Shown piece by piece: positions 2,425 through 62,304 of a stretch of 64,000 nt of DNA. The stretch spans positions 69,315 through 133,314 of the forward strand of contig CAZINT010000001.1 in assembly GCA_964540825.1 (NCBI GenBank), read 5' to 3'. The position numbers were made by a program, and so were the translations under genes. Under the pieces are notes generated by a model. The model was not told the origin of the DNA and ran no database searches. It saw only the letters and a list, made by a program, of their open reading frames with translations. The stretch's first letter is position 1; every line of letters begins with the position of its first letter. Source of the stretch: an uncultured Gammaproteobacteria bacterium. Its GTDB lineage: Bacteria > Patescibacteriota > Patescibacteriia > Magasanikbacterales > GWA2-37-8.

Positions 2425-2481
2425 GTACGTCAATACTGTTTGGTGTTAGCCGCTATATTTACAAAATATTTTGTAGCAGCA

Positions 2482-2510
2482 TTGACTGAACCCTTAAAAT
2501 ATGTTATACT
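2482..2510 (+). promoter_or_regulatory. sigma70-type promoter TTGACT-N17-TATACT upstream of the GC-rich lipoprotein gene
   Basis: TTGACT at 2482-2487, TATACT at 2505-2510, 17-nt spacer. Confidence 0.6.
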
Positions 2511-2663
2511 CCGGTATCTTCTGCGCCGAGCAGAGGATTTTTTTATTTACAACGTTCTTTACCAGCTGTTTCTTGGTGGTGAAAAAGGCATTTTGTGCCT
2601 TATTTTCCACCAAGAAACCGCCGTGCGTCGGATACGCATGTTTGTGTCCCAGGAGTCCAGTAT

Positions 2664-3107
2664 ATGGAGAAGTCCCCAGTCATCGCCCGTCTCGCGTCCG
2701 GCATCATGATGCTCGCCGTTATCCTCAGCCTCATCGGGTGCGGTCAGGAGCTAGAGCCGGAACCCATCTATGACACGGAGATCAAGGATTATTACTACGC
2801 CGATTTTACCGCCAGCGGGCTTATCCCTGAGCAGCTGGCGTGGGTCACGGTGCGTAACATTCCGGATGGTGCAAAGCTCGCTCTCCTGTATGGAAGCAAC
2901 GCAAGCGATTCACGTCCCCACCAGATCGGGTTCCTGGTCTGCCTGGCGAATGAGCAGGTTCACTCGCTCGCCATCGGCGAGATGGGGATGATGGCTTCGA
3001 AGCGGGTCGAGGTCGGAAGCACCTACTACAGTGGCGCTACCACGGTCAAGATGATCTGCACAGTGCTGGTCGGTGGCGCCTACCACGCTGCTCTTCGTAA
3101 GAAGTAA
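2664..3107 (+). CDS. small lipoprotein (GC-rich island gene A), function unknown
   Basis: AGGAG RBS 8 nt upstream of the ATG. Signal peptide MEKSPVIARLASGIMMLAVILSLIGCG with a lipobox LIGC. GC content is clearly above the flanking DNA. Confidence 0.6.
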   Translation: MEKSPVIARLASGIMMLAVILSLIGCGQELEPEPIYDTEIKDYYYADFTASGLIPEQLAWVTVRNIPDGAKLALLYGSNASDSRPHQIGFLVCLANEQVHSLAIGEMGMMASKRVEVGSTYYSGATTVKMICTVLVGGAYHAALRKK

Positions 3108-3207
3108 CTCCCGTACCCGGTACCTGCCGGGTTCCCGGTCAGGCCGCGATTCAATTCGCGCTTGGCCGATGTTCCTGAGTACTTTTGCAAAAGTTTTGAG
3201 GAACAGA

Positions 3208-3236
3208 ATAAAAACCCCTGGTGTCAGGAGTTTTTT
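3208..3236. terminator. bidirectional terminator shared by convergent lipoprotein genes A and B
   Basis: AAAAACCCCTGGTGTCAGGAGTTTTTTT, a hairpin flanked by an A-run and a T-run. Confidence 0.55.
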
Positions 3237-3306
3237 TATTTTTAGTATGGGGGAGGGGTGGAGCGAGAGGGGGAAATATTTCTCGCTCCACAGTAGTTGG
3301 GGCGGG

Positions 3307-3771
3307 CTACTTGGCGCTCGCAGCAAGAACCAGTTGGATTTTGGTGCGCGCCTGGCCGCCGAGCGGAGTTGGTCCGATGCCGGGAACACGCTCTGTGCCG
3401 GTGATGAACTCGCTGTTCTCGCTCAGGAACGCTTCAGCGGTGATGTCGAACGTGAGCAGGCAGTTGAGCGGCGGAACGTGAATCGTCCAATAGGCCGGCA
3501 GCACACACTTGGCTGCTCCGATCTTGAGCTCGGCCATTTTAATGGCGCTACCGTCGCAGTCGATTGCGATGGCTGCCCCACTGATGCTGTCACACTGTTC
3601 GAAGCGGTTCGGCGCGCTGTTCGGTGTCAGGAGCTCGATCGCAAGGCACGCCTCGCTCGCGCTGCACATCGAGAAGGGGTCGCTGGGTGCTGCTTCGGTG
3701 GGTGTGGTGAAGCTACACCCGCCAATGAGGAGACTGATCAAAGCGGTCGCAATACCAATTGCTCTAGACAT
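3307..3771 (-). CDS. small lipoprotein (GC-rich island gene B), function unknown
   Basis: AAGGAG RBS 7 nt upstream. Signal peptide MSRAIGIATALISLLIGGCS with lipobox LIGGC. The long opposite-strand ORF 3073..3798 is considered an artefact of high GC. Confidence 0.6.
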   Translation of the reverse strand: MSRAIGIATALISLLIGGCSFTTPTEAAPSDPFSMCSASEACLAIELLTPNSAPNRFEQCDSISGAAIAIDCDGSAIKMAELKIGAAKCVLPAYWTIHVPPLNCLLTFDITAEAFLSENSEFITGTERVPGIGPTPLGGQARTKIQLVLAASAK

Positions 3772-3838
3772 GGTGCTCTCCTTCGTGAGTTGCTTTGACC
3801 CTACCAGGAAGCCCTTTGCTTTTCAAGTGCTTCTTTTT

Positions 3839-3847
3839 TGGTATACT
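3839..3847 (+). promoter_or_regulatory. extended -10 promoter element TGGTATACT immediately upstream of uvrC; implies a leaderless or near-leaderless mRNA
   Basis: TGGTATACT at 3839-3847, ATG at 3859. Confidence 0.45.
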
Positions 3848-11494: not shown

Positions 11495-12247
11495 ATGGAT
11501 GGTTTGCAGCCTCAAAGAGCTTGGTATAAACGATGGTGGGGAATACTACTCATCATTTTTTTGGTTATCGTGTTTATTATTATCGGTTTTGTCGCTGCAG
11601 TTACCTTTAGCTATTGGCGCCAAATTAAAAATGGCGGCGGAGCGCTGCTCGAGCAGGAAGTGTATAGCGGCTTTACAAAGGCTACTGATACATCGGCCTT
11701 TGGGTCAATCACTGCCCCGAGTCGTTCCGAGCTTGAGCGCTCGGACAGCCCGTATCTCGGGAACGCCGCTGCGCCGATTGTTATCGTTGAGTTTCTTGAT
11801 TTTCGTTGTCCGAACTGCGATACTGCGGCCCCGATTATGCGCCGGGTACTTGAAAAATATGGAAGCAAGATAAAGTATATTGCGCGCCATTTCCCTGTTG
11901 AATCAACACACCCTGGGGCATCACGGTATGCCGAGGTGGGGTGGTGTGCACAGCAGCAAGGACGATTTTGGCCCGTACTCAATTATTTTTTCGATCATCA
12001 GACCGATTTGTCTGACGTGTTGTCGCAATCTGAATTGGTCGCGGTAGCTGCGGCAACCCAACTTGATGTTGGAACGCTTACAGCTTGTCTGACAGGTTCA
12101 TCTGCTGCTAAGACTGCCGTGAATCGAGACTATGTTGATGGGGCAAAATTTGGCGTACGCGGCACGCCTACATTTTTTATTAACGGTGAAAAAGTAGAGG
12201 GTGTTATCCCGGAAGCAGTCTGGGAATCGTTCCTTAAACAACAATAA
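11495..12247 (+). CDS. membrane-anchored DsbA-family thiol:disulfide oxidoreductase
   Basis: N-terminal TM helix, thioredoxin fold with a CPNC active site. Confidence 0.8.
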   Translation: MDGLQPQRAWYKRWWGILLIIFLVIVFIIIGFVAAVTFSYWRQIKNGGGALLEQEVYSGFTKATDTSAFGSITAPSRSELERSDSPYLGNAAAPIVIVEFLDFRCPNCDTAAPIMRRVLEKYGSKIKYIARHFPVESTHPGASRYAEVGWCAQQQGRFWPVLNYFFDHQTDLSDVLSQSELVAVAAATQLDVGTLTACLTGSSAAKTAVNRDYVDGAKFGVRGTPTFFINGEKVEGVIPEAVWESFLKQQ

Positions 12248-12254
12248 ATTTCGT

Positions 12255-13658
12255 ATGTTTAAAAAAATCTACCTGATCGTTGTCTTCGGTACACTTTTGC
12301 TTTTGGGGCAGACTGCGCTTGCCCAGAGTGAGTCAAGTATTCCGGAACTCAATTCCTTATGCTGGCATAAGGCAGATTGTGTTGAGCAGCGTAAAGTGCT
12401 TGACCCGCTAGCCTCTCCGCAAGAATTAGAAAGAGGCTGGATTTCGCCGGAGGGTGATTGTAAAGGCGAGGATTGGGGTAAGTGTTTGCCTGCCGGGCAG
12501 ACGGAAACGAGTATTTCGTTTGGAGGCCGCAAACAGTTTTTGCATATCGGAGATTTTCTTGGAACAATGTATACCTATGCGATTGGCATTGCGGCTATTG
12601 TGGCGGTGCTTATGATTATTGTTTCGGGTTTTCAGTGGGCGCTTTCAGGCGGAAACAGTGAAACAATTTCTACGTCAAAATCACATATTGTTGGAGCTGT
12701 GATCGGGCTTTTAATTGTGTATTTATCATATTTTATTTTAAACACCCTTAATCCAACTCTGGTTAGTTTTCGTCTGCCGAGTGTCTGGATGGTTAAACCG
12801 CAAACCTCTATTCCGGCTTTTTGTTCGCAGCTGCCCGCTAGTACAAAATTTTCGTATGCTGCTGAATTTAAAGACCAAACCTCAGTGGTTAAACCGACAG
12901 ACAAAACCGTGTACGATATGTCACTTCAGGATACAAGTACCTCAAACCTGGAAAAATTTTATTGCGGCCATCGTTTTTTTGTTCAAAATGGCGGTAGTAA
13001 CACGTGCTTTGGCGACTACTGCCCGTCAGTAAACGGCAAAAGCGCATTTTGTATCTTTGATGGTGCTACTCAAAAATACGGCTGCCATGAAGGGAACATT
13101 TTTATCAATACAACGCATAATTCGCTTGTGAAAGATCTGTTCCCAGATTGGGCAACACGTGAATGGAATGACCCTTCGGTAAACACTATCCTTGATTTAG
13201 ATGCCCTTTGTTCGCCAACAACGGATTTTACATTGGGTATATCAAATTCAACCGTACAGTCTTTTGACGTAAAGCCCAGTAGTTACGCTGAAAATAAAAA
13301 GCAGAATATTGCTCTATCGATAGATCCTCAGAAAATTGATGAAGCAACACAGCGGTGTACGGGTAGCGGTGGTACGCTTAAGGGCTTTGTGCTTTCGTTT
13401 GACATGAACCAAAGCTATAACACGTCTAATCAGCGGCATTTTATTGGCACAAACGGTGAAGATTTAGGTGATGATTCGTTTTTCACTAAGCGATGGAATC
13501 AGATTCCGGTAAGTTATTTTTTTACGGGCGATCAGCTGAAGAAAAAGGTAATGTTAAATATTGAAGTGTCAAAAATAAAAGATATTTCTAATCTGTTTGG
13601 CAGAAGCAGTGTTGAAGATCAAAAAACATATTTTGAAAAATTTGGTATTTCACAATAG
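12255..13658 (+). CDS. secreted/membrane Cys-rich protein with a two-TM hairpin (VirB2/TrbC-pilin-like topology), function unknown
   Basis: Signal peptide MFKKIYLIVVFGTLLLLGQTALA. Central helices YAIGIAAIVAVLMIIVSGF and IVGAVIGLLIVYLSYFIL separated by a short loop. At least 14 Cys in the predicted extracellular parts. Confidence 0.55.
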   Translation: MFKKIYLIVVFGTLLLLGQTALAQSESSIPELNSLCWHKADCVEQRKVLDPLASPQELERGWISPEGDCKGEDWGKCLPAGQTETSISFGGRKQFLHIGDFLGTMYTYAIGIAAIVAVLMIIVSGFQWALSGGNSETISTSKSHIVGAVIGLLIVYLSYFILNTLNPTLVSFRLPSVWMVKPQTSIPAFCSQLPASTKFSYAAEFKDQTSVVKPTDKTVYDMSLQDTSTSNLEKFYCGHRFFVQNGGSNTCFGDYCPSVNGKSAFCIFDGATQKYGCHEGNIFINTTHNSLVKDLFPDWATREWNDPSVNTILDLDALCSPTTDFTLGISNSTVQSFDVKPSSYAENKKQNIALSIDPQKIDEATQRCTGSGGTLKGFVLSFDMNQSYNTSNQRHFIGTNGEDLGDDSFFTKRWNQIPVSYFFTGDQLKKKVMLNIEVSKIKDISNLFGRSSVEDQKTYFEKFGISQ

Positions 13659-13667: not shown

Positions 13668-16460
13668 ATGTCTGAAAATATTGTCATTAAAGGAGCGAGA
13701 GTTCACAATTTAAAAAATCTGACGATTGAAATTCCTAAGAATAAGCTCGTCGTTGTTACTGGTTTATCCGGCAGTGGAAAATCAAGTTTGGCCTTTGATA
13801 CGGTCTATGCCGAAGGTCAGCGCCGTTACGCCGAAAGTTTGTCGAGCTATGCCCGGCAATTTATGGAAACGCGTGATAAGCCTGACGTTGATTCAATCGA
13901 CGGATTGTCGCCAACTATTGCGATTGATCAGAAAATTTTTACCCAAAATCCCCGCTCCACGGTTGGAACCGTGACGGAAATTTATGATTACCTCCGCCTC
14001 CTGTTTGCGCGCGCTGGTGAACAGTACTGCCCGGACTGTCATATTTTGGTTGAGACGCATACTGCTGGCGAGGTGGTTGAAGCGGTCCGCGATTTGGCGC
14101 GTAAGAAAACGCTTGTTTTAATTTATGCACCCCTCATTCGCAAGGGTCATGTTGATCACAAAGTGCTGCTTGAACAGGTGGAAAAAACTGGGTATGAATG
14201 GCTGAGAATTGATGGCGAAGAAATAAAAATTAATGAGCTCGCTGATTTTGATTTTGACGCCAACAGTAACTACAACGTCGATTTATTGATCGGCAAAATT
14301 ACGGATATTAAAAAACAAGATCCAACCAAGCCGGTAGAAATTGCACTTGACCTGAGTGACGGTTTAGTAAACGTGGTAATTGATGAAAAGACTCAGGTAT
14401 TTTCAACGATTGGTCTGTGCTCAAACTGCGGCCGAACCATGCCAGTTCTTGATATGCGCAGCTTCAGCTTTAATAGTCCTTACGGTGCTTGTCAGCGCTG
14501 CACCGGTCTTGGAATTACGATGGAAGTTGATGCTGGTCTCGTGATACCGAATATGCGTCTTACCTTGGCAGAAGGCGCTATTCAGCCCTGGACACGCATT
14601 ACCGGTAGCCACAATGCCTATCAGAAATTATTGGCATCGGTAGCCGAAAAATATGGTTTTTCACTCAATACTCCAGTTGTCGATCTGCCGGCAAAAATGC
14701 TCAATATTATTTTGTATGGCACGGGTAGCGAAACCTTCCTGTCCGAAGGTAAAAAAATGACTTTTCCCGGGGTTATTCCTGATCTCATGGCCAAGCATTT
14801 AGAGACAACGTCTGAATATGTGCGCAAAGAAATAGAACAATACATGCGCGAAAAAATTTGCAGCGTGTGTCAGGGCAAACGTCTGCGTCCGGAGTCGTTG
14901 TCGGTGAAAATAGGTGAATACACTATTTCCGAGCTTGCTGCGATGAGTATTGAAGAAATGAAAGAGATTTTGCAGGCAAAAGTTAAGACTTCGAAATCGA
15001 AGATCATGCAATTAGTAACCAAAGAGATTGTTCCTCGCCTGACGAATTTAGAGCGTGTCGGTCTTAGTTATCTCAATATGGATCGCGCCATGAATACGTT
15101 GTCGGGCGGTGAAGTCACGCGCGTGCGCCTTGCAACTCAGTTATCAAGCGGGCTCTCAGGGATCATCTATATTCTTGACGAACCGTCGGTTGGTTTGCAT
15201 CCTCGCGATACTAAAAAATTGATTGAAACCCTTAAATATTTGCGTGATCTTGGCAACTCAATTTTGGTTGTCGAGCATGATGCCACTATGATGCATGCAG
15301 CAGACTACCTGATTGATATTGGCCCTGGAGCTGGTGTATACGGCGGAGAGCTCATGGCAGCTGGAACATTGCCGGATCTCAAAAAAGCCAAGCAATCACT
15401 CACGGCAGATTATTTGTTTGGACGCACTACAATTGCACGCCGTAAAAAATTACCTAAAAAAGGAGCAGCGGGAACAAAGTCGATTGTAATTACTGGTGCT
15501 CAAGCCCATAACCTCAAAAATGTTGATGTCGAAATTCCGCTGGGTCAGCTGGTTTGTGTAACTGGTGTTTCAGGTTCAGGTAAGTCTACGCTTATTATTG
15601 ATATTTTGAGTAAGGCCTTGGCCAAGCATTTTTATCGCGCCAAAGAAGAGCCGGGCGTTCATAAAGCAATTAAGGGTTTGTCAAATATCGATAAAGTTAT
15701 CGCGATTGATCAGTCGCCAATCGGACGAACGCCGCGTTCAAACCCGGCAACCTATACCGGTGTCTTTAATCTTATTCGTGATTTGTTTGCTGCACTCCCC
15801 GAGGCGCGTATGCGTGGGTACGATGCCGGCAAGTTTAGCTTTAATGTAAAAGGCGGCGGGCGCTGTGAGGCATGCAGCGGCGACGGCTCCATTCGTATTC
15901 CAATGCAATTTTTGGCCGACGTGTTTGTGGAATGTAACGAATGTAACGGCTGGAGATATAATCGCGAAGCCTTGGAGGTGCATTATCACAACAAACATAT
16001 TGCTGACGTTCTGCGTATGACGGTTGAAGAAGCGTATCAGTTCTTTGCGGATGTTGCCCCGATTGCTGAGAAATTAAACGTGCTTCGCGAAGTTGGTCTT
16101 GGCTACGTGCAGCTTGGACAATCCGCCACAACGCTTTCCGGCGGTGAGGCGCAGCGTATTAAATTGTCACTTGAACTTTCTCGCCATTCCACAGGCAAGA
16201 CATTATATATTCTTGACGAACCAACAACCGGTTTACATTTTGAAGATATCAAGCGCCTCCTCCAAGTACTTGATCGTTTGGTAGAAAAGGGAAATAGTGT
16301 TCTTATTATCGAACACAATGTTGAGCTCATCCGTTCGGCCGACTGGGTAATTGATATGGGCCCTGAGGGCGGCGACGGCGGCGGGGAAGTCGTGTGTGTC
16401 GGAACACCGGACGATATCCGTAAATGTAAAAAGAGCTGGACCGGAAAGTATTTGCTCTAA
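13668..16460 (+). CDS. uvrA: excinuclease ABC subunit A (canonical, full length)
   Basis: 930 aa. N-terminal GLSGSGKSSLAFDT, two ABC modules, Zn fingers, and a full insertion domain. Confidence 0.95.
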   Translation: MSENIVIKGARVHNLKNLTIEIPKNKLVVVTGLSGSGKSSLAFDTVYAEGQRRYAESLSSYARQFMETRDKPDVDSIDGLSPTIAIDQKIFTQNPRSTVGTVTEIYDYLRLLFARAGEQYCPDCHILVETHTAGEVVEAVRDLARKKTLVLIYAPLIRKGHVDHKVLLEQVEKTGYEWLRIDGEEIKINELADFDFDANSNYNVDLLIGKITDIKKQDPTKPVEIALDLSDGLVNVVIDEKTQVFSTIGLCSNCGRTMPVLDMRSFSFNSPYGACQRCTGLGITMEVDAGLVIPNMRLTLAEGAIQPWTRITGSHNAYQKLLASVAEKYGFSLNTPVVDLPAKMLNIILYGTGSETFLSEGKKMTFPGVIPDLMAKHLETTSEYVRKEIEQYMREKICSVCQGKRLRPESLSVKIGEYTISELAAMSIEEMKEILQAKVKTSKSKIMQLVTKEIVPRLTNLERVGLSYLNMDRAMNTLSGGEVTRVRLATQLSSGLSGIIYILDEPSVGLHPRDTKKLIETLKYLRDLGNSILVVEHDATMMHAADYLIDIGPGAGVYGGELMAAGTLPDLKKAKQSLTADYLFGRTTIARRKKLPKKGAAGTKSIVITGAQAHNLKNVDVEIPLGQLVCVTGVSGSGKSTLIIDILSKALAKHFYRAKEEPGVHKAIKGLSNIDKVIAIDQSPIGRTPRSNPATYTGVFNLIRDLFAALPEARMRGYDAGKFSFNVKGGGRCEACSGDGSIRIPMQFLADVFVECNECNGWRYNREALEVHYHNKHIADVLRMTVEEAYQFFADVAPIAEKLNVLREVGLGYVQLGQSATTLSGGEAQRIKLSLELSRHSTGKTLYILDEPTTGLHFEDIKRLLQVLDRLVEKGNSVLIIEHNVELIRSADWVIDMGPEGGDGGGEVVCVGTPDDIRKCKKSWTGKYLL

Positions 16461-19017: not shown

Positions 19018-19306
19018 TTATTTAAGGAGCGGCATAATTGGTCTGGTGCCACCCGACGGTTTAATTGGCCCGCCAATTCCACCTTTTTTGAGTGTTTGAG
19101 CAATGCTCCCAACGGCGTGGCTGCCAGCGCCTTCGCTCGATCCGTGCATGCTAGTCGAATCGCCGACTTGGTAAATGTGGGATGACTCGTGCATTTGGCT
19201 GATGCTGGTTAGGCCTTTTGGGGTGCTTGGTGTGCTCGGTCGTCCAAGGCTGCCGCCGATGCCGACGGTGTTAGTGGGACGTCGAAGTGGGGGAGTAATT
19301 GCCATA
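19018..19306 (-). CDS. hypothetical low-complexity Gly/Ser/Pro/Thr-rich protein inside a GC-rich segment next to tRNA-Ile. Coding status doubtful
   Basis: Longest frame in a GC-elevated stretch. No clear RBS. A plus-strand hairpin plus T-run at 19058-19092 lies inside it. Confidence 0.25.
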
Positions 19307-19331
19307 TACTCTAGGTTATGGATAAAAAATG

Positions 19332-19404
19332 TGCGCCCAGATGGAATTGAACCATCGACATCCACCTTATAAGGGTGGCGCTCTAACCCCTGAGCTATGG
19401 GCGC
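19332..19404 (-). tRNA. tRNA-Ile with anticodon UAU (reads AUA); CCA not encoded
   Basis: Manual fold. Acceptor GCGCCCA/UGGGCGC, D-stem GCUC/GAGC, anticodon stem CCACC/GGUGG with loop CUUAUAA, T-stem GAUGG/CCAUC with loop UUCAAUU, discriminator A. Confidence 0.8.
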
Positions 19405-26288: not shown

Positions 26289-26371
26289 AAATATCAGGTT
26301 TTTTAAAACAGCCCTGGGGCTGTATTTACAAAGAGAATATACCGTATTGGTAATTATTTGTCAAGAGTAGC

Positions 26372-26398
26372 AAAAAGCCACCTAAAAGTGGCTTTTTG
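26372..26398 (-). terminator. intrinsic terminator downstream of gyrB
   Basis: AAAAAGCCACCTAAAAGTGGCTTTTTG. Confidence 0.7.
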
Positions 26399-26420
26399 TG
26401 CATAAATACCGGGATTTTCA

Positions 26421-28520
<2,100 letters not shown>

Positions 28521-30503: not shown

Positions 30504-30596
30504 TTTTCTCAGCCTCCCCACACGCGTTCAAGCGTTAGTTGAAAGGTGATCCTGAGAGGGTGTGAAGTAGCTTGTTTTGTTCGTGCGCTACTTTTG

Positions 30597-31184
30597 TTAG
30601 TTGGTCGGCAGCCTCAGGAGGCCGCCGGTCTTGTTGATCGGGGTTCCCTCATGGCGCACGCCGCCCGCGATGTAGAAGTAGGAGCCCAGGTTAAACTGGA
30701 ACTCGCGGCCGTCCAGCGCGAACGCCGTGGTGTCCATGCGCAGTGCGAGGATCGTCTTGTAGGGGATGGGTGCCGAGATCGGGGTTCCCATCTGGTTGGG
30801 TCCCCAGTGGGCCGCGCCGTTGGCGAAGGACCAGTTGTGGACCTGGTGGGTCCTGTCCAGGGTCTCGAGGACGTAGCGGGTACCGTCGAGGTTGCTCGCC
30901 AGGCTCCCGGACGCCAGGATGAAGGCCTCGTTGAAGTAGGCCTGGACACAGTCCGTCCCGACCTGACCTTCCACCGAGATGTGGAGCACGTCGGTGTCGG
31001 TGTTCACCGTGATCTCGCCGCTGGGGGTCGAGGGATCCACCTCGAAGTAGGCCCAGGCGTCGCTCAGCTCCCCGGTTCGGCTGACGCACAGGCCGCTTGA
31101 CGAGCTGGTGCTGGCTTGCGGGCTACCGCAGGCGCCGAGCACGAGGTTGAGGCTGATGAGAAGGGATCTGGTTGAGTTTTTCAT
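30597..31184 (-). CDS. small lipoprotein (GC-rich island gene C), function unknown
   Basis: GGAG RBS. Signal MKNSTRSLLISLNLVLGACGS with lipobox LGAC. GC-rich. The in-frame upstream extension to 31337 is considered non-coding. Confidence 0.6.
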   Translation of the reverse strand: MKNSTRSLLISLNLVLGACGSPQASTSSSSGLCVSRTGELSDAWAYFEVDPSTPSGEITVNTDTDVLHISVEGQVGTDCVQAYFNEAFILASGSLASNLDGTRYVLETLDRTHQVHNWSFANGAAHWGPNQMGTPISAPIPYKTILALRMDTTAFALDGREFQFNLGSYFYIAGGVRHEGTPINKTGGLLRLPTN

Positions 31185-31378
31185 TAAGGCTCCGTTGTCA
31201 GAGTGCATATTTTTAGGAGCCGGGCTCCTAGGGATTCCCGTGACGATTATCACGGGCACCTGTTGAGAGGAAGGTGGCAAGCCTAGCACAAAAAAACCAT
31301 TTTTGTCAATGGTTGAGCGGTTTTTTGTTATTGCCAAGCTAATTATTATTTGGTACAGTACGCGAGTTATTATATTAT

Positions 31379-33788: not shown

Positions 33789-33841
33789 ACTGAAATGCGA
33801 AACCTCCCGGGTGCGGGAGGTGGTGTGGCTCAGAACGAGCT

Positions 33842-34075: not shown

Positions 34076-34103
34076 TGGTCCCTCCTCGGTAAAAGAGCTA
34101 GAT

Positions 34104-34132
34104 AAAATATCCTATTTAACAATTCTTGTCAA
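34104..34132 (-). promoter_or_regulatory. promoter TTGACA-N17-TATTTT driving the small GC-rich membrane-protein gene
   Basis: Reverse complements at 34127-34132 and 34104-34109. Confidence 0.55.
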
Positions 34133-41420: not shown

Positions 41421-43001
41421 ATGAAAAAGAATTCAACAACATTGCTTTTGATTCTTGATGGTTTTGGTTTGCCAGGGCCCAAGGATACAAACACTGTGGT
41501 GAATGCCAAAAACACGCCGCACTTTTTTAAGTGGCTTAAAAAATTTCCAAATACCGCACTTGAAGCGAGCGGTGCTGCTGTGGGCCTTTTTAAAGGCCAG
41601 GAAGGTAATAGCGAGGCCGGGCATCTGAATTTGGGTGCGGGGCGTATTGTTAAACAAGATGCGCTCTATATTACGGATGCTATTAACGACGGAACATTTT
41701 TTAAGAATAATGCCTTTCATGAAGCAATTCACCATGTCAAAAAATATCGGACCAGCGCTCATATCATGGGGCTGCTCTCCAATCACAATAGTGCTCATTC
41801 GAGCCCTGAACATTTGTATGCGCTGTTAGAACTTTTACATCGTGAAGGGGTCAAAAAAGTCTATCTCCATTTATTTACCGATGGCCGTGACTCCGGACAG
41901 CATGATGCGATGCATCACCTCAAAAAATTGGAACAGCAGCTCTATGGCAACCAAAAAGTTGCTACGCTTATGGGGCGACTGTATGGCATGGATCGCAATA
42001 AGATTTGGAAGCGTACCAAAGCTGCCTACGAAGCAATTGTGCTGGGTGAAGCCCTTCATCACGCTGCTTCTGCAGAAGAAGCGCTGGCCCAAGGGTACAA
42101 CCGTTCTGAAACTGATGAGTTTATTTTTCCGACGGTAATTACTGATATCGAAGGAGATCCGGTAGCCAAAATTAAGGATAACGACGTGATGTTTTTCTTT
42201 AATTTACGCAGCGACCGAGCACGCCAACTTACTAAAGCTCTCGTGCAGCCCGATTTTGAAAAGATGAATCCGGGAGCGTTTCATCGGCGTGGTTTTCCAA
42301 AACATACCCGTTTTGTCGCTATGACGGATTTTGGTCCAGACTTACCGGGGGTGTTAACTGCTTTTCCGAGCCGGGATATTAAAAATGGCTTAGTTGAGAC
42401 GCTTCGTTCATTAAAGCAACTGTATATTGCCGAGTCAGAAAAATTTGCCCATATTACCTATTTTTTAAATGGTGGGTATCCTAAGCCGTTTGGTGACGAA
42501 ACCTGGGCAAAGGTTGCCTCGGATGGGGTTTTAAGCTATGATAGTAGGCCTAAGATGCAGGCACGTAAGATAGCCGATCAGGTGATTAAGGCTATTCAGG
42601 CCGGTACGTACGACTTTATTGCAGTTAACCTGGCAAATGCCGACATGGTTGGCCATACCGGGGATCTTAAAGCGGCTCTCGTTGCCGTTCAAACGCTTGA
42701 TCAGGAATTAAACCGCATGATTACCACACTTTTAGCGGCAGGAGGGCAGGGTCTGCTTACTGCTGATCATGGTAATATAGAGGAGTTGATAAACCTTAAA
42801 ACCGGCGAAAAAGATACGGAGCATTCAATTAATCCTGTCCCGTGTGTGCTTTTTGCTTCGGCTGCTCAGCTCAGAGACTGGAAGATAGCTGGTAAACGCC
42901 TTAAATCGCGCGGAGCAAAATTGGCAAACGTTGCTCCGACGCTGCTCAAAATGCTTAAAATCTCCAAACCCAAAGAAATGACCGCCACCTCCTTATTTTA
43001 G
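41421..43001 (+). CDS. gpmI: 2,3-bisphosphoglycerate-independent phosphoglycerate mutase, paralog 1
   Basis: LILDGFG...GNSEAGHLNLGAGR metalloenzyme motifs. AAGGAG RBS. Confidence 0.85.
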   Translation: MKKNSTTLLLILDGFGLPGPKDTNTVVNAKNTPHFFKWLKKFPNTALEASGAAVGLFKGQEGNSEAGHLNLGAGRIVKQDALYITDAINDGTFFKNNAFHEAIHHVKKYRTSAHIMGLLSNHNSAHSSPEHLYALLELLHREGVKKVYLHLFTDGRDSGQHDAMHHLKKLEQQLYGNQKVATLMGRLYGMDRNKIWKRTKAAYEAIVLGEALHHAASAEEALAQGYNRSETDEFIFPTVITDIEGDPVAKIKDNDVMFFFNLRSDRARQLTKALVQPDFEKMNPGAFHRRGFPKHTRFVAMTDFGPDLPGVLTAFPSRDIKNGLVETLRSLKQLYIAESEKFAHITYFLNGGYPKPFGDETWAKVASDGVLSYDSRPKMQARKIADQVIKAIQAGTYDFIAVNLANADMVGHTGDLKAALVAVQTLDQELNRMITTLLAAGGQGLLTADHGNIEELINLKTGEKDTEHSINPVPCVLFASAAQLRDWKIAGKRLKSRGAKLANVAPTLLKMLKISKPKEMTATSLF

Positions 43002-43014: not shown

Positions 43015-44592
43015 ATGAAATATAAGCCGGTTGTACTCGCCATTTTCGATGGTTGGGGTGTTGCTCCAGATAGCGAAGGTAATGCAATAACCCGATCAAG
43101 AACGCCCAATTTTTTGTCGTACGTTAAAAATTATCCAGTGATGACGCTCTACGCATCAGGAAATGAAGTCGGCATTAACCCGGGCGAGATGGGTAATTCA
43201 GAAGTGGGCCACCTCAATATTGGAGCTGGGCGTGTGTACTACCAATCGTGTCCACGTATTAATCAGTCAATTTCAAGTCAGGATTTTTATACCAATCGTG
43301 CTTTTACTGGGGCAGCAGAACATGTGCGTACCCACAAATCAAAATTACACATTATCGGTCTGGTCGGGTCGGGAAATGTGCACGCGAGCAGTGAACATTT
43401 GATTGCGCTCCTACAGTTTTGTAAACAGCAAGGTCTTGGCAAAGAAGTGTTCGTGCATGCAATTTTGGATGGCCGTGATGCGGTTTATAATTCCGGGCAA
43501 GTGTTCGTGAAGGAACTAGAAAAAAAGATGGGTGAACTTAAGGTTGGTAAAATTGCTACAATTTCCGGTCGCTATTACGCGATGGATCGTGATAATCGCT
43601 GGGACAGAATTGAAAAAGCTTACGCTGCTATGGCTGAAGGGCGCTCTGAACAATCCGCTGCATCAGCAGCTGAGGCTATTGCAGCATCATATGACCAGAA
43701 AAAGTTTGACGAAGAGCTGATGCCAACAGTTATTACAAAAAATGGCGCTCCACTCGCGACAGTCGGCGAAGGAGACGCTGTTATCTTTTTTAATTTTAGA
43801 CCGGATCGTGCACGCGAATTAACGCACGCCTTTGTTTTGCCTGGTTTTGAAAAATTCAAACGTGAGTATATAAAAGATTTGTATTTTGTCACCATGACTG
43901 AATACGAAAAAGATTTGCCCGTCGTAGTTGCCTATCCGCCAATTATTGTTACGAATTGTCTGGCGGAAGTGATCAGTAAAGCGGGCCTCAAGCAGCTCCA
44001 TGTCGCTGAGACCGAGAAATATGCCCACATCACTTTCTTCTTGAACGGTACTGTAGAAAATCCGTTTCCAGGCGAAGACAGAGCGCTTGTTCCGTCGCCG
44101 CAAGTCGGCAGCTATGCCGAAGCCCCAGAAATGTCAGTTAAGGGTGTGGTTAAAGAAGTGATTAAGGGTATTGATAGCGGTACCTATGATTTTATAGCGC
44201 TCAATTTTGCAAATCCGGATATGGTTGGCCACACCGGTAGCCTTGAGGCAACCATCGCTGCCTGTGAGGCTGCTGACAGTGCGCTTCGCGAGGTGGTTGA
44301 ACATACTTTGGCTAAAGGCGGCGTTGTTGTCATGACCGCAGATCATGGTAATGCCGAGGGAGTTATTAATTTACAAACCGGTGAAATTGATAAAGAACAC
44401 TCAACGAGTCCGGTACCGCTTTTGATTATTGGTAAAGATTTTCAAGGTCAAGCCGGCCCGGCAGGGGACCCACCTGACGAAGACCTGAGCCTTCTGTCGC
44501 CGGTCGGTATGCTCGCGGATGTTGCGCCCACAGTTCTTAAATTAATGGGGCTTGAGCAGCCGCCCGAAATGACCGGAACGCCGCTCGTATAA
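43015..44592 (+). CDS. gpmI: 2,3-bisphosphoglycerate-independent phosphoglycerate mutase, paralog 2
   Basis: AIFDGWG...GNSEVGHLNIGAGR. Same architecture as the adjacent paralog. Confidence 0.85.
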   Translation: MKYKPVVLAIFDGWGVAPDSEGNAITRSRTPNFLSYVKNYPVMTLYASGNEVGINPGEMGNSEVGHLNIGAGRVYYQSCPRINQSISSQDFYTNRAFTGAAEHVRTHKSKLHIIGLVGSGNVHASSEHLIALLQFCKQQGLGKEVFVHAILDGRDAVYNSGQVFVKELEKKMGELKVGKIATISGRYYAMDRDNRWDRIEKAYAAMAEGRSEQSAASAAEAIAASYDQKKFDEELMPTVITKNGAPLATVGEGDAVIFFNFRPDRARELTHAFVLPGFEKFKREYIKDLYFVTMTEYEKDLPVVVAYPPIIVTNCLAEVISKAGLKQLHVAETEKYAHITFFLNGTVENPFPGEDRALVPSPQVGSYAEAPEMSVKGVVKEVIKGIDSGTYDFIALNFANPDMVGHTGSLEATIAACEAADSALREVVEHTLAKGGVVVMTADHGNAEGVINLQTGEIDKEHSTSPVPLLIIGKDFQGQAGPAGDPPDEDLSLLSPVGMLADVAPTVLKLMGLEQPPEMTGTPLV

Positions 44593-44593
44593 A

Positions 44594-44628
44594 AATACCT
44601 CGTCCAATTTGGACGAGGTATTTTTTAT
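44594..44628. terminator. bidirectional intrinsic terminator
   Basis: AAAAATACCTCGTCCAATTTGGACGAGGTATTTTTT. Confidence 0.8.
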
Positions 44629-44638
44629 GTAAATATAT

Positions 44639-45793
44639 TTATATTTTTGCTTCTAAGCTTTGCGCCAGCAGCCGCAGGGCATATGCTTCACTTTCTTGTA
44701 GATTTTTTCCTTCAATAACAAAGGTGGCTTGTTTCTTGTCTCCTGTGGCACGCAGTTCTTTGCCAAGCTGTAATGCGCTATGATGACGTTCGCTTGAAAT
44801 AAGTCCATAGACTTTGCCGGCGGCTGCTTCACCAGGGAGTTCGTAGAGAAGAACAATAATCTTAGCTTCGGGTGAATTGCTGATTAGATCATCCACGACG
44901 CCTTTAAGATCCTGTGCTTCAGCGCCGGAATGAATAAAATCTTCGCGCGTAATCATGGTAGATACAATGCCGAGTGCCGGGTCGCTCTTAAGGTGTGTGA
45001 GAGCCTGGCCCCAGAGCTTGAGTGTTGCGAGCGAGCGGGTGCGGTACAAATTTTGAATAATAGTTTCGCGTTCGCCTCCAAGTTTAATAAGACTGCTCGC
45101 CACATTCAGTGCTTGTGGAGTAACGTTCGCAGTTTTAAAACTCTTGGTCGCGGCAATCATGCCGGTCAAAAGCGCAGTCGCAATTTCTTTGCCAATAGCC
45201 GATTCGTCAACTTGGCGCAGAAGCTGGTAGACAATTTCAGAAGTAGAAGTGGCTGTTAAATCAACGGCATTGATTTGACCGTAGCGTTCGTTATTGCCAT
45301 GGTAGTCGATATTTACGACCGGCGTCCGGTAAAACAAGTCGGTGTTGTTCAGGAAGATACCGCCGAGGGATTCGAGGTCGGGAGTGTTAAGGGTGATGAT
45401 CAAATCAAATTTGAAACTGGACTGAGCAGTACGAAGTTCGTTTTTGGTAATAAGTCCCTGTTCTGGCGTAAGGTAAATAGAGAGCCAATTATCTTTAATA
45501 TCATAACTGATGGTTTCGAGTTTTACCTTGGAAACATCAACCTTGATAATAAATTTTTGTAAGTGGCTGAGTTCATTTTTAATTTTGGCAGCGCCAGGGA
45601 GAAAGTGGAATTGTTTAGGGGTAGTAAAACCTTCAGCCGCAAGCTCGACTTGCTTATTGGTTTGTTCCAAAAAAAGCTTTAGGGCAACAGCTGCGCCGAT
45701 CGAATCCGCAGTTTCGGTACCATTAAAAACCACCAAGACATACTTGCTGTTTTCAAGAAGTGTTTTGAGTTGTGCCGGTTCGTTAAGGGCCAT
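44639..45793 (-). CDS. DHH-family phosphoesterase (NrnA-like) with degenerate catalytic motifs
   Basis: DHH/DHHA1-like layout, but motif III reads DYH and the motif I His/Asp residues are not evident. Confidence 0.5.
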   Translation of the reverse strand: MALNEPAQLKTLLENSKYVLVVFNGTETADSIGAAVALKLFLEQTNKQVELAAEGFTTPKQFHFLPGAAKIKNELSHLQKFIIKVDVSKVKLETISYDIKDNWLSIYLTPEQGLITKNELRTAQSSFKFDLIITLNTPDLESLGGIFLNNTDLFYRTPVVNIDYHGNNERYGQINAVDLTATSTSEIVYQLLRQVDESAIGKEIATALLTGMIAATKSFKTANVTPQALNVASSLIKLGGERETIIQNLYRTRSLATLKLWGQALTHLKSDPALGIVSTMITREDFIHSGAEAQDLKGVVDDLISNSPEAKIIVLLYELPGEAAAGKVYGLISSERHHSALQLGKELRATGDKKQATFVIEGKNLQESEAYALRLLAQSLEAKI

Positions 45794-54043: not shown

Positions 54044-54130
54044 GCCCAGGTGGCGAAATTGGTAGACGCACTACCTTGAGGTGGTAGCTCCCGCAAGGGA
54101 ATGGAAGTTCGAGTCTTCTCCTGGGCACCA
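54044..54130 (+). tRNA. tRNA-Leu (anticodon GAG), class II with a long variable arm; CCA encoded
   Basis: Manual fold. Acceptor GCCCAGG/CCUGGGC, anticodon stem CUACC/GGUAG with loop UUGAGGU, long variable arm CUCCCGCAAGGG, T-loop UUCGAGU, 3' ACCA. Followed by terminator AAAAAACAGAAATACGAGTATTTCTGTTTTTT (54130-54161). Confidence 0.85.
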
Positions 54131-54168
54131 AAAAACAGAAATACGAGTATTTCTGTTTTTTAATATTA

Positions 54169-54197
54169 TTGACAAATAAGCCTTTATTAAGTAGAAT
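54169..54197 (+). promoter_or_regulatory. consensus promoter TTGACA-N17-TAGAAT driving the GC-rich island gene downstream of tRNA-Leu
   Basis: Read directly. Confidence 0.55.
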
Positions 54198-54276
54198 TTT
54201 GTATTCTTTGTAGTTCAGTCGGTAAAAGTAAACACGCTTTGTTTATTGCTACCGCCTGAATACGGAGAACAGCGTC

Positions 54277-54549
54277 ATGCAAAACCCCAGATCGCAGCGT
54301 TTGCGTGCAGCCTTGTTGATTGGCGTGTGTCTTTTCTGCGGCTGCCCAAACAAGGGTGTGGTTCAGCCAACGAGCGGCTCAGCCGTCGTTGCTCAGCCTC
54401 AGCACCAGCCGGATTTGGCGCCGGCCAGCCCTGACCTCACCGGGATTCCCTGGGCCAAGCAGCCTCACCCGATCAAGGTCAGTCCCGGAGAGCCTGATCC
54501 GGGTGCGTTTGAGCCTGCTTACGATACCGAGGAGAACAATCAGGAATGA
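54277..54549 (+). CDS. small GC-rich secreted/lipoprotein-like protein (island gene E), Pro-rich, function unknown
   Basis: GGAG RBS. N-terminal hydrophobic segment with Cys cluster LLIGVCLFCGC. Followed by the CAGCGAAGCGT...ACGCTTCGCTG inverted repeat and an ACTACTT/AAGTAGT + T6 terminator (54607-54631). Confidence 0.5.
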   Translation: MQNPRSQRLRAALLIGVCLFCGCPNKGVVQPTSGSAVVAQPQHQPDLAPASPDLTGIPWAKQPHPIKVSPGEPDPGAFEPAYDTEENNQE

Positions 54550-54690
54550 AAATCTACCAGCGAAGCGTAGGACTTCTGTGTCCACGCTTCGCTGCTGCCC
54601 CCCTCGACTACTTGCTGAAAGTAGTTTTTTACTTTTAAAAAATCATTTTTTTAAGTATACTATAGAAGACAGGTATTATTTATAAAAGCT

Positions 54691-60248: not shown

Positions 60249-60311
60249 AGCTTGCTATTTGAACTATTCTGTTGGTATACTCAGATAAACTTATTTGTAA
60301 GTATAATATAT

Positions 60312-60650
60312 ATGAAATTATTACTTCGTTGGCTCTTTAGCGCCGGCCTCCTGATGCTCATCGCGTACTATTTGCCTGGCGTACATATTTTTAGTTTTTA
60401 TAACGCCCTTATCGCCGCGCTTATTTTAGGCCTGATCAACGCAATTATTCGGCCGATTATTATTCTTTTAACGCTACCCGTAAATGTAATTACACTCGGA
60501 TTATTTAGTTTGGTAATTAATGCGCTCATGTTCTGGCTGGCAGGCAGTATTGTCAAAGGTTTTTATGTTGACGGGTTTACGCCGGCTTTGTTTGGGTCAT
60601 TGATTATGTCTGTGGGCGGCTGGATTTTTAGCAGTTTGTTTAAAGAGTAG
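60312..60650 (+). CDS. DUF360 (YvlD / Phage_holin_4_2-like) four-TM membrane protein
   Basis: LPGVHIF...ALILGLINAIIRPIIILLTLPVNVITLGLFSLVINALMFWLA matches the family consensus. TGGTATACT promoter upstream (60280-60288). Confidence 0.65.
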   Translation: MKLLLRWLFSAGLLMLIAYYLPGVHIFSFYNALIAALILGLINAIIRPIIILLTLPVNVITLGLFSLVINALMFWLAGSIVKGFYVDGFTPALFGSLIMSVGGWIFSSLFKE

Positions 60651-60840
60651 TGTGAAAAAATATTCCTCGAATCGTGCTCAAAAAGGCAAAACAGCCTATC
60701 GTACACCAAGCCGTTGGCTCGCTGGTCGGCCAGAAGCGTTTAAACGGCGCGATAATACTAAAATTATGCGCGGTATGCAAAAGTCTCATTTTCCACTTGG
60801 TAGTAAAGACACGAATGTTTAGTCTGTAATCTGTACTTCT

Positions 60841-61527
60841 ATGAAACAAAACTATAAAATTGTATCAGTCGGTGGTTCAATTGTTATTCCGCAAACTGGT
60901 TTTGATATTGAATTTTTAAAAAAGTTTAAAGCGTTAATTTTGAAAGAGGTTAAAAAAGGCCAAAAATTTATTTTGGTAATTGGAGGTGGTGGAACGGCGC
61001 GGAGTTATCAGGCAGCTGCTAAAGCAGTGGCCGGATTATCAAATGACAATTTAGATTGGGTTGGTATTTATGCCACACAATTGAATGCTCAGTTTGTGCG
61101 CATGCTTTTTGGGGCGGATGCGCATGCCGAGATTATTACTAATCCAACTAGAAAGTTTATTACAAAAAAATCCATTATTATTGGTGCTGGGTGGAAACCG
61201 GGCTGCTCAACGGATAATGACGCGGTACTCTTGGCTAAAACATTTGGAGCTAAAGAAATAATCAATTTATCCAATATTGATTACGTTTACACAAGCGACC
61301 CGAAAATTAATCCAAGTGCTACGAAGCTTGAAAATATCGGCTGGAAAGAATTGCGCAAGATTATTGGCGACAAATGGACGCCTGGTGCAAACGTACCGTT
61401 TGACCCCACAGCTGCCAAGACTGCGGAGAAGCTAAAATTGAAAGTTTCGTTTGTGAAAGGAACGGATCTGGGTGAAGTCGCTAAAGTAATTCAGGGCAGA
61501 AAATGTTTAGGAACAGTAATTATATAA
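60841..61527 (+). CDS. pyrH: amino-acid-kinase-family protein, probably archaeal-type UMP kinase
   Basis: KIVSVGGS and VIGGGGTAR motifs. ~228 aa, resembling archaeal-type UMPK more than bacterial PyrH. Confidence 0.55.
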   Translation: MKQNYKIVSVGGSIVIPQTGFDIEFLKKFKALILKEVKKGQKFILVIGGGGTARSYQAAAKAVAGLSNDNLDWVGIYATQLNAQFVRMLFGADAHAEIITNPTRKFITKKSIIIGAGWKPGCSTDNDAVLLAKTFGAKEIINLSNIDYVYTSDPKINPSATKLENIGWKELRKIIGDKWTPGANVPFDPTAAKTAEKLKLKVSFVKGTDLGEVAKVIQGRKCLGTVII

Positions 61528-61532
61528 TTTTT

Positions 61533-61570
61533 AAAAAATAACCTGCCATTGGTGATGGCAGGTTATTTTT
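61533..61570. terminator. bidirectional intrinsic terminator (serves pyrH and the minus-strand CSD gene)
   Basis: AAAAAATAACCTGCCATTGGTGATGGCAGGTTATTTTT. Confidence 0.8.
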
Positions 61571-61635
61571 GTACAGGAAGGCGGTAAGGCCTTCCTGGGG
61601 GTTGTGGTTCCGGCTCTGCTTACCCAGAGCACCCG

Positions 61636-62157
61636 CTACTTGTCCTTGATCTTGATGTTCGGCGGCAGACTGGCCTTCGGCAGCTGGGGCTGGTAGCTGC
61701 TGTTCTCGCCGTCCCAGCACGCGATTCTGAAGATCTGCGTTGTGGCGGGTCGCCAGATGATCCCCGTCCAGTAAACGGGGTTATTGCCGCCAGAGTTGAA
61801 GGTGACCTCGAGGGAGAAGTCACCCGCTCGGAGCTGCTTCTCCGTGATCCAGGGGATCGTGGAGAGGGGGATCATCTGGGACTCACCGCTGTCGCTGATG
61901 GTGACGGGCTCCTCGTCCTCGAAGCACCAGCGGCAGGCCTGCGGGCCTTTTCCGTTTCTGCCCGGCTCGACCTTGCACACTAGGCGATCACCCTTCTGAG
62001 GTGTCCGGCTGAGCGGCTGGTCGCCGAGCCAGGGGGAGTACCGGGCGGCGTGGAAGAACACGTCGCCCCCGTTGTTGTCGAGGACGATGAAGCCGTACCG
62101 CTCCTCTGGCTTGAAGAACTTGACGATTCCGCTCTTGGTGTCAGGCTGTCGCTTCAC
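61636..62157 (-). CDS. cold-shock-domain protein with a ~100-aa C-terminal extension (GC-rich island gene F)
   Basis: GTG start with AGGAGG RBS 7 nt upstream. GIVKFFKPEERYGFIVLDNNGGDVFFHAARY...KGDRLVCKVEPGRNGKGPQA is a canonical CSD. ~105-nt 5' UTR with a 10-bp stem TTTGGGTCGC/GCGACCCAAA and a TCGGCGC/GCGCCGA stem, like csp leaders. Promoter TTGACA-N17-TATATT at 62261-62289 (minus). Confidence 0.65.
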   Translation of the reverse strand: MKRQPDTKSGIVKFFKPEERYGFIVLDNNGGDVFFHAARYSPWLGDQPLSRTPQKGDRLVCKVEPGRNGKGPQACRWCFEDEEPVTISDSGESQMIPLSTIPWITEKQLRAGDFSLEVTFNSGGNNPVYWTGIIWRPATTQIFRIACWDGENSSYQPQLPKASLPPNIKIKDK

Positions 62158-62304
62158 TTTGTTCCCTCCTGAACTTTGTCGGCGCGTTGGCGCCGAGGTT
62201 TGGGTCGCGCTAAACACTGCTACGTGTGTAATGCGACCCAAATCTAGCAGGAAACAGCTGAATATATCATAAAAAAGTACTTTTGTCAATGTGCTGGAGC
62301 CTTG

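Follow-up and report, generated by a model that had tools for sequence, protein, structure and literature searches.

The DNA examined here is a window of 64,000 nucleotides (nt) from contig CAZINT010000001.1 (assembly GCA_964540825.1), a piece of the chromosome of an uncultured member of the Patescibacteria, or candidate phyla radiation (CPR). The window has 44.9% GC overall, and a scan in 150-bp sliding windows (standard deviation 0.064) detects GC-rich runs that coincide with six islands singled out in a first-pass annotation, where they were interpreted as short foreign gene cassettes. The islands are numbered from left to right: island 1 lies between uvrA and uvrC, island 2 beside a tRNA-Ile gene, island 3 between tsf and rlmI, island 4 between gap and aspS, island 5 between a tRNA-Leu gene and a membrane-protein gene, and island 6 between pyrH and rplJ. 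The names given to the flanking genes agree with Pfam labels on identical or syntenic contigs, and both tRNAs are recovered by ARAGORN and Rfam.

Genes and composition of the islands

The GC-rich runs extend over positions 2592-3820 in island 1 (57.4% GC), 30508-31263 in island 3 (61.6%), 33729-34114 in island 4 (56%, with 61.6% in the core initially proposed, 33800-34080), 54243-54619 in island 5 (58.4%) and 61538-62243 in island 6 (60.3%). The run of island 2, at 19022-19313, is weaker (53-55%). To describe all six as GC-rich outliers is therefore correct for islands 1 and 3 to 6 (58-65% GC against 44.9%) and incorrect for island 2. The open reading frame (ORF) of the latter, with a GC content of 0.53 at third codon positions (GC3; z = 1.9), is no outlier in codon usage.

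Sixty ORFs of the window were used as the host reference, with a GC3 of 0.432 ± 0.053 and a maximum of 0.585. The genes of islands 1, 3, 4, 5 and 6 have GC3 z-scores of 4.1-8.7, and no other ORF of the window comes near their values. Most of the GC excess is found at third codon positions, in exactly the reading frames proposed in the first-pass annotation. Alternative ORFs in other frames or on the other strand show the displaced periodicity of non-coding frames, with GC contents near 0.9 at the first or the second codon position. Preferences in two-fold codon families are inverted between island and host genes (AAC 0.91 against 0.31, TTC 0.90 against 0.21, GAG 0.84 against 0.24, ATC 0.77 against 0.24). 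Island 2 excepted, the islands are outliers by GC3 and by codon preference, as had been anticipated.

The anomaly reaches beyond the coding regions. Untranslated regions (UTRs) and spacers of the islands mostly have 46-63% GC, with two AT-rich flanks of 31% and 39%, compared with 34 ± 7% in host intergenic DNA. Hence, the bias is a property of the DNA segment and not of codon choice alone. Native membrane proteins encoded in the window (SecE, DUF378, PAP2, an M50 peptidase and an 80-aa protein) are not GC3 outliers.

The five outlying islands share a compact layout: one gene or a convergent pair of genes within 0.4-1.2 kb, provided with a promoter-like site, a Shine-Dalgarno sequence and a terminator of its own and lodged in a gap between housekeeping genes (Table 1). 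Lipoboxes (LIGC, LIGGC, LGAC and LFCGC), AGGAG-type ribosome-binding sites and promoters with a TTGACA-like element, an N17 spacer and a -10 element are present as first described. When the sequences are read against the pattern [LVI][ASTVI][GAS]C, the lipoboxes of lipoA (LIGC), lipoB (IGGC) and the island 3 gene (LGAC) are canonical, and the motif of the island 5 gene, (F/L)CGC, is non-canonical. The four lipoproteins and the island 4 peptide, which has two hydrophobic helices (2-TM peptide, for two transmembrane segments), are predicted to be exported or membrane-anchored.

In island 1, the ribosome-binding site of lipoA is CAGGAG, 8 nt upstream of the gene, and the 5' UTR has 150 nt with a long hairpin that may be a regulatory structure. 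The ribosome-binding site of lipoB is AAGGAGAG, and its promoter-like site stands back to back with that of uvrC. The island 3 gene has a GGAG ribosome-binding site and sits between the tsf terminator and the rlmI promoter. In island 4, the promoter-like site is TTGACA-N17-TATTTT.

Table 1. Features of the six islands and of the adjoining tRNA genes. Promoter-like sites were read from the sequence.
Feature	Position	Strand	Remarks
Promoter-like site of lipoA, TTGACT-N17-TATACT	2482-2510	+	In the AT-rich edge of island 1, after the uvrA terminator
Hairpin in lipoA 5' UTR, 26-nt arms	2565-2621	+	Repeat search
lipoA, 147-aa predicted lipoprotein, lipobox LIGC	2664-3107	+	GC 58%, GC3 0.74; frame by GC3 periodicity
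lipoA/lipoB spacer with terminator-like hairpins	3108-3306	.	53% GC against 34% in host intergenic DNA
lipoB, 154-aa Cys-rich predicted lipoprotein, lipobox LIGGC	3307-3771	-	GC 60%, GC3 0.72; convergent with lipoA
Island 2 ORF, 96 aa, Gly/Ser/Pro/Thr-rich	19018-19305	-	Ungapped comparison with L032 (CAZECR)
tRNA-Ile, anticodon TAT	19331-19404	-	ARAGORN and Rfam
Island 3 gene, 195-aa predicted lipoprotein, lipobox LGAC	30597-31184	-	GC 64.5%, GC3 0.89; GC3 frame analysis
Island 4 gene, 77-aa peptide with two hydrophobic helices	33842-34075	-	GC3 0.81; preceded by GAGGAGGG
tRNA-Leu, anticodon GAG	54044-54130	+	Left neighbour of island 5; ARAGORN and Rfam
Island 5 insert	54141-54627	+	Terminator hairpin, promoter-like site, lipoprotein gene, 3' UTR
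Island 5 promoter-like site, TTGACA-N17-TAGAAT	54169-54197	+	
Island 5 gene, 90-aa predicted lipoprotein, LFCGC	54277-54549	+	GC3 0.65
Island 6 insert	61531-62326	-	Bidirectional terminator, GC-rich 3' UTR, CSD gene, 5' UTR, promoter-like site
Bidirectional terminator of island 6	61534-61570		Part of the island 6 insert
CSD protein gene, 173-aa product	61636-62157	-	Probable GTG start behind AGGAGGG; GC3 0.87
Hairpin in CSD gene 5' UTR, 22-nt arms	62196-62245		Part of the island 6 insert
Island 6 promoter-like site, TTGACA-N17-TATATT	62261-62289	-	

No known family had been recognised among the products except for the cold-shock domain (CSD) protein of island 6, and database searches bear this out: Pfam, NCBIfam and PHROGs give nothing for the lipoproteins, LipoA included, or for the 2-TM peptide. 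A HMMER search of 1.84 billion representative sequences retrieved two relatives of LipoB, both lipoproteins of about 150 aa (56% and 42% identity). A third match was dismissed as a spurious repeat match. Among 5.8 billion proteins, the island 3 protein has a single match, a strain copy with 93% identity, and the CSD protein matches only itself. AlphaFold2 yields a pLDDT of 31 for the island 3 lipoprotein (two-sequence alignment) and of 42 for the CSD protein (single sequence), values too low for either model to be of use.

The start of the CSD protein deserves comment. The 173-aa form listed in Table 1 is probably the actual product; databases hold a 217-aa form that starts with TTG at 62289. 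The Pfam domain (PF00313) covers residues 53-119 of the 217-aa form, with 29.9 bits against a cut-off of 27 (E = 5e-7). The protein resembles CspA-family cold-shock proteins in that its N-terminal 65 residues pass the Pfam cut-off, in its RNP1-like (RYGFIV) and RNP2-like (VFFHA) motifs, and in the long structured 5' UTR of its gene, whose hairpin may be regulatory and recalls the structured leaders of cold-shock genes. It differs from them in its scores against the NCBIfam Csp equivalogs (CspA/CspE, stand-alone proteins of about 70 aa), which are around 17-23 bits with cut-offs of 115-144, and in a C-terminal extension of about 100 aa that belongs to no known family. Its best plasmid-borne match has only 38-40% identity, and its PHROG cold-shock matches lie well below the cut-offs.

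Automated gene callers often chose a wrong strand or start within the islands. Examples are calls on the antisense strand or from an upstream GTG at L001 3946-4500, L030 885-1436, L019 10907-11356 and P0008 (contigs are introduced below). As a consequence of such errors, public protein sets carry spurious proteins and miss some real lipoproteins.

The islands in related genomes

Three sister genomes were found through members of the 90%-identity clusters of the flanking proteins. CAZECR (GCA_964510495; contigs L019, L025 and L032) shows about 87-90% nt identity to the window in the regions examined initially and 80-91% in one compared afterwards; CAZWKA (GCA_964634875; L003, L021 and L029), about 76-86%; and a JGI population (Ga04900xx; L013, L022 and L026), about 75-89%. 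The source of CAZWKA is a wastewater study (PMC9405806, which cites SRP286056). In addition, contigs L001, L002, L012 and L030 belong to independent Logan assemblies from other sequencing runs, and L030 represents a 95%-identical strain with island 1. Relatives of RlmI in GTDB genomes place the organism in the Patescibacteria (66% identity with a "Patescibacteria group bacterium", 59% with a metagenome-assembled genome of Falkowbacteria). The TPA records of L003 and L005, the closest public genomes, are titled "uncultured Gammaproteobacteria", which is probably a mislabel, as gene order and nearest named relatives are those of Patescibacteria.

Independent assemblies reproduce the islands together with both junctions. 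Identity is 100% across islands 3 and 4 in L001 and L002, and 99.8% across island 6 and both its junctions in L012. Islands 1, 2, 3, 4 and 5 are found in sister genomes, and the strain contig holds island 1. Recurrence of the six islands, be it in independent assemblies or in sister genomes, shows that they are not chimeras.

Comparison of the sites shows that cassettes have been acquired, deleted or exchanged for unrelated genes between genomes with flanks that are 75-90% identical in nucleotide sequence. Islands 5 and 6 are cleanly absent, and islands 1 and 3 replaced, in relatives that conserve the flanks. Observations at each site can be summarized as follows.

(i). At the island 5 site, 16 bp in CAZWKA (L021) and 121 bp in JGI (L022) stand in place of the approximately 490-580 bp of the window. 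CAZECR (L025) has an orthologue whose frame is kept through 3-nt indels. At the island 6 site, JGI (L022) has 40 bp in place of 797 bp; the CAZWKA contig ends before this site.

(ii). Three mutually unrelated lipoprotein genes occupy the tsf/rlmI gap. CAZECR (L019) carries an orthologue of the island 3 gene (88% aa identity) with a diverged signal peptide, CAZWKA (L003) an unrelated gene for a 207-aa lipoprotein (GC3 0.82), and JGI (L013) another unrelated gene for a lipoprotein of 143 to 159 aa (GC3 0.74). The tsf terminator, the rlmI promoter and the first codons are conserved in all three versions.

(iii). Both genes of island 1 are present in CAZWKA (L029), lipoA with 77% aa identity (dN/dS, the ratio of nonsynonymous to synonymous divergence, 0.28) and lipoB with 79% (dN/dS 0.18). 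The strain contig has a lipoA orthologue with 95% identity. In JGI (L026), the island is replaced by a gene for a 184-aa protein with a weak Sigma70_r4 Pfam match and a GC3 of 0.52.

(iv). The island 4 gene has orthologues in CAZWKA (L003; 57% aa identity, GC3 0.59) and JGI (L013; 71%, GC3 0.77), with dN/dS of 0.21-0.36. The CAZECR contig stops short of this site.

(v). The secE/gyrB gap, empty in the window (26365-26421) and in CAZWKA (L003), contains, in CAZECR (L019 6159-6596; GC3 0.83), a 145-aa lipoprotein gene complete with a promoter and a terminator of its own and, in JGI (L013 6372-6635), a different gene, of 87 aa. This gap is another insertion hot spot.

Island 2 behaves differently. 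The first-pass annotation found no supported gene in it, but the segment contains a 96-aa ORF that is conserved in CAZECR (L032), the one relative in which the site can be read. The two copies show 65 differences, distributed 12/5/48 among codon positions, with a dN/dS of 0.05 and a host-like synonymous divergence (dS) of 1.75. The ORF matches no family. No RNA is apparent either: Rfam in E-value mode gives nothing credible, and the fold has a z-score of -0.23 relative to shuffled sequences. On this substitution pattern and on host-like codon usage, we take island 2 to be a conserved native gene and not a foreign cassette, and leave it outside the set. Its high GC content is explained by the amino acid composition of the protein (Table 1), which is probably disordered. 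The ORF starts 25 nt after tRNA-Ile without a visible Shine-Dalgarno sequence, and may be either co-transcribed with the tRNA or leaderless. The anticodon of this tRNA, UAU, is conserved in L032 and replaces the usual lysidine-modified CAU type for AUA.

Divergence along island 1 is uneven. Window positions 2345-2741, which include the terminator, the promoter, the 5' UTR and the signal-peptide part of lipoA, are 43-55% diverged from CAZWKA, compared with 13-19% from the mature-protein part of lipoA through to uvrC. The locus is therefore a mosaic, with a recombination break point near the signal-peptide/mature boundary of lipoA. The same break-point pattern, near the equivalent boundary, is seen when the island 3 gene is compared with contig L010.

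Island genes are under purifying selection, though of a weaker kind than core genes: every orthologue pair has a dN/dS below 1, with values of 0.18-0.55 against 0.01-0.10 in core genes. Their synonymous divergence is about 1.2- to 7-fold lower than that of nearby host genes, with the 2-TM gene compared with CAZWKA as the exception. Against CAZWKA, dS is 0.54 in lipoA and 0.65 in lipoB (host genes, 0.87-1.70); against CAZECR, 0.17 in the island 3 gene (host, 0.61-1.25); against JGI, 0.53 in the 2-TM gene (host, 0.66-1.34); and against the strain contig, 0.05 in lipoA (uvrC, 0.31). Fourfold sites differ by 33-36% in lipoA and lipoB and by 60% in uvrC. The low divergence of island 1 is patchy and reaches the non-coding spacer, which is just 13% diverged from CAZWKA, and the first 100 nt of uvrC. 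This pattern points to recent shared ancestry by recombination rather than to codon selection.

Changes were polarised by parsimony, comparing the window with the strain contig and using CAZWKA as outgroup. In island 1, GC→AT changes outnumber AT→GC changes 20 to 4, while the adjacent host genes show 48:54 (Fisher p = 0.0013). When islands 1 and 4 are pooled, the figures are 37:16 against 252:278 in the host (p = 0.002). The 20:4 flux indicates that the composition of island 1 is not in equilibrium and is decaying towards that of the host.

Other GC-rich accessory genes are found in the relatives, and these belong to ordinary families: FA_desaturase (GC3 0.69), MFS (0.76-0.78) and POT (0.81-0.92). 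Upstream of uvrA, where the window starts inside the gene, the relatives have GC-rich transporter genes (L029 804-5020; L026 2823-5847). An MFS gene is common to the two contigs; their POT genes, of 822 aa and 435 aa (GC3 0.92 and 0.81), share 28% identity. The desaturase is an acyl-CoA desaturase gene with 57% GC located between iPGM (phosphoglycerate mutase) and DHH genes (L022 1056-1880), and is absent from the equivalent place in the window (44592-44720).

GC-richness is not general among variable genes. A 577-aa ORF of the window (22098-23831) has a low GC3 of 0.32 (z = -2.1). The JGI relative lacks it, and the 561-aa counterpart in CAZECR belongs to no Pfam family. This ORF is a variable gene of the opposite compositional type. 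Several small genes in the relatives have likewise host-like or lower GC contents.

Further features of the window lie outside the islands. Two UvrA-like genes (29-2344 and 13668-16460) and two tandem iPGM genes (41421-43001 and 43015-44592) are kept in the relatives, and such duplications are unexpected in a streamlined genome. A 485-aa ORF (12201-13658) stands beside a DsbA-like gene, and its counterparts in the relatives give a weak T4SS_pilin Pfam match; a part in DNA uptake or cell contact is conceivable.

Origin of the cassettes

We consider it likely, with a probability of roughly 0.7, that islands 1, 3, 4, 5 and 6 represent small cassettes of accessory genes, foreign in their compositional origin, within a CPR chromosome. 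The proposal that the islands are foreign thus holds for these five, which are compositionally foreign and strain-variable (island 4 with the reservation discussed below), and has to be abandoned for island 2.

GC3 values near 0.9 are typical of genomes with about 60-70% GC, and for this reason the DNA would ultimately come from a source in that range. Entry would have taken place after DNA uptake, by recombination that leaves no site-specific scars, for instance illegitimate or homology-facilitated recombination. The cassettes would then have spread among related lineages by homologous recombination through the conserved flanks, which would explain both the younger (lower dS) cassette genes and the mosaic divergence. 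Once established, they would drift slowly towards host composition. Lower dS and the GC→AT decay of island 1 fit foreign DNA that arrived later and is ameliorating. The products would serve as a variable set of surface lipoproteins: a variable cell-surface repertoire is a reasonable proposal when most products are predicted lipoproteins, and evolution faster than that of core genes under purifying selection fits it.

Several observations weigh against this interpretation. One is the lack of a donor. Beyond near-identical strain copies, no homologues of the island 3 and CSD proteins exist among the 5.8 billion proteins searched, which is awkward as genes with GC3 around 0.9 are expected to be recent arrivals. 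A tblastn search of plasmids gave nothing for island 3 and only the cold-shock match mentioned above for the CSD protein, and scans of IMG/VR with the LipoB family and the island 3 protein gave nothing. Another is the AT-rich, host-like character of the promoter-like sites and T-tract terminators in the cassettes. Such elements would not come with DNA imported directly from a high-GC bacterium; they must have evolved once the cassettes had arrived, unless the immediate donors were other relatives with low GC. Island 4 is a difficulty of its own: it is present in 3 of 3 relatives with a readable site and is therefore old, not a recent gain; its GC→AT excess is non-significant (17:12; host, 204:224); and its dS against CAZWKA, 1.36, is within or above the range of host genes. 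Moreover, the polarity test in island 1 involves 24 changes, and parsimony can over-count changes from common to rare states. Lower dS could reflect constraint on synonymous sites instead of younger age. Lastly, the cell-surface location and the expression of the products are predictions.

The first-pass annotation had postulated a high-GC donor, and homology searches do not identify one; that the donor could be a high-GC host bacterium is a speculation. For the POT gene of L029, the nearest JGI relative has 45% identity and is located on a contig with a uniform 65% GC, and plasmid matches do not exceed 33%. The best plasmid-borne relatives of the L022 desaturase have at most 49% identity and belong to mixed phyla. 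The POT matches fit a high-GC source for the POT gene, but the matches of both genes are too distant for naming a donor.

The alternative that survives best, although we regard it as unlikely, sees in the cassettes a pool of fast-evolving genes for surface proteins, private to the lineage, which circulate only among relatives by recombination at hot spots between core genes. What sets their unusual composition would not be a cellular donor with high GC but, for instance, an unsampled virus or plasmid of these bacteria that is itself GC-rich, or a GC-enriching process. The orphan status of the island 3 and CSD proteins speaks for this possibility, together with the restriction of LipoB relatives to similar small lipoproteins, and so do the unrelated GC-rich lipoprotein genes found at one site in three genomes and the mosaic divergence with break points near the signal-peptide/mature boundary. 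It is on account of the host-like AT-rich elements and the lack of donor homologues that we retain it. However, viral or plasmid matches are missing in the searches described, island 1 loses GC instead of holding or gaining it, and the other GC-rich genes of the relatives are of ordinary cellular families, with the nearest POT relative on a 65% GC contig. Furthermore, the 64-kb window contains no template/variable repeat pair of a diversity-generating retroelement, no reverse transcriptase signature and no silent paralogous copies. Neither is any sequence shared among the islands or repeated elsewhere in the window, and the lipoproteins of the window and its relatives show no family relationships beyond the LipoB family.

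A second alternative is that the genes are native and that GC-ending codons, rare in the host, are kept by selection, either for slow translation of exported and membrane proteins or for mRNA stability. Export or a membrane location is predicted for five of the six products, most of the GC-rich genes of the relatives (MFS, POT, desaturase and lipoproteins) likewise encode exported or membrane proteins, and low synonymous divergence is what synonymous constraint would produce. We nevertheless find this explanation improbable, and clean presence/absence and replacement in sister genomes largely refute it. GC-richness also affects UTRs and spacers, and the low divergence is shared by the spacer and the start of uvrC. 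The net GC→AT flux of island 1, the ordinary GC3 of native membrane proteins and the cytoplasmic nature of the CSD protein are additional objections.

The adjacency of islands 2 and 5 to tRNA genes, classic landing sites for integrated DNA, and the single-gene format raise the possibility of remnants of tRNA-targeted integrative elements or of integron-type cassettes. We view this as very improbable. No duplicated tRNA 3' end, att-like repeat or inverted terminal repeat was found, and the cassette ends show no attC-like imperfect inverted repeats. The borders contain only terminator hairpins, with no direct repeats, target duplication or shared motifs. No integrase or transposase is present among those neighbouring genes whose Pfam labels were seen. 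In addition, every cassette is equipped with a promoter of its own, no tRNA gene adjoins four of the six sites, and island 2 is native.

Finally, RNA genes often account for GC-rich patches in genomes with low GC, and some metagenome bins are chimeric, but assembly chimeras, contamination or structured RNA genes mistaken for coding DNA are refuted for practical purposes by the recurrence of islands and junctions in different sequencing runs and in sister genomes, by the strong three-base GC periodicity and coding-type substitutions, and by Rfam, which at gathering thresholds detects only the two tRNAs and an L10 leader in the whole window and no family inside any island (the fold of island 2 being no better than those of shuffles).

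Known systems and meaning for the organism

Genomic islets and "replacement" flexible genomic islands are variable, compositionally atypical segments found between core genes at hot spots. The cassettes resemble them in atypical composition, in their location between core genes, in presence, absence and replacement, and in enrichment for surface products. They differ in size (just 0.4-1.2 kb, with one or two genes), in the lack of mobility genes and site-specific scars, in being GC-richer than the host, and in that almost all products are orphans. Acquired genes and ORFans are usually AT-richer than the host (PMC3514957, PMC2718499).

Other systems are less similar. Islands formed by tyrosine integrases at tRNA genes share with our set the location of two segments beside such genes, but one of the two segments is native, and integrases among labelled neighbours, tRNA 3' duplications and att repeats are missing. 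Integron cassettes are also compact, mobile single-ORF units, often orphans; unlike the dispersed cassettes described here, which have promoter-like sites, they are promoterless, carry attC and are arrayed by intI. The vsp/vlp genes of Mycoplasma and the vls/erp genes of Borrelia are paralogous families that vary within one genome through silent cassettes, repeats or invertible promoters. A small genome and strain-variable lipoproteins that evolve faster than core genes are points in common, but the cassette genes are single-copy, mutually unrelated and repeat-free in the window, and vary between genomes. Altogether, the pattern is that of genomic islets or replacement islands and represents ordinary horizontal gene flux, with no new mechanism. 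What is unusual is the GC-rich direction of the bias, the single-gene size and the orphan products in a CPR genome. A literature search on GC-rich islets in Patescibacteria retrieved nothing specific.

The genomes of CPR bacteria are tiny, and a life in attachment to other cells is assumed for these organisms. The few genes in which close CPR relatives differ are thus prime candidates for roles in host recognition or attachment. In the window, much of that variation takes the form of single-gene cassettes, mostly for predicted lipoproteins, placed between housekeeping genes. Finding the source of the cassettes might lead to the organism with which this uncultured lineage is physically associated, or to one of its mobile elements.

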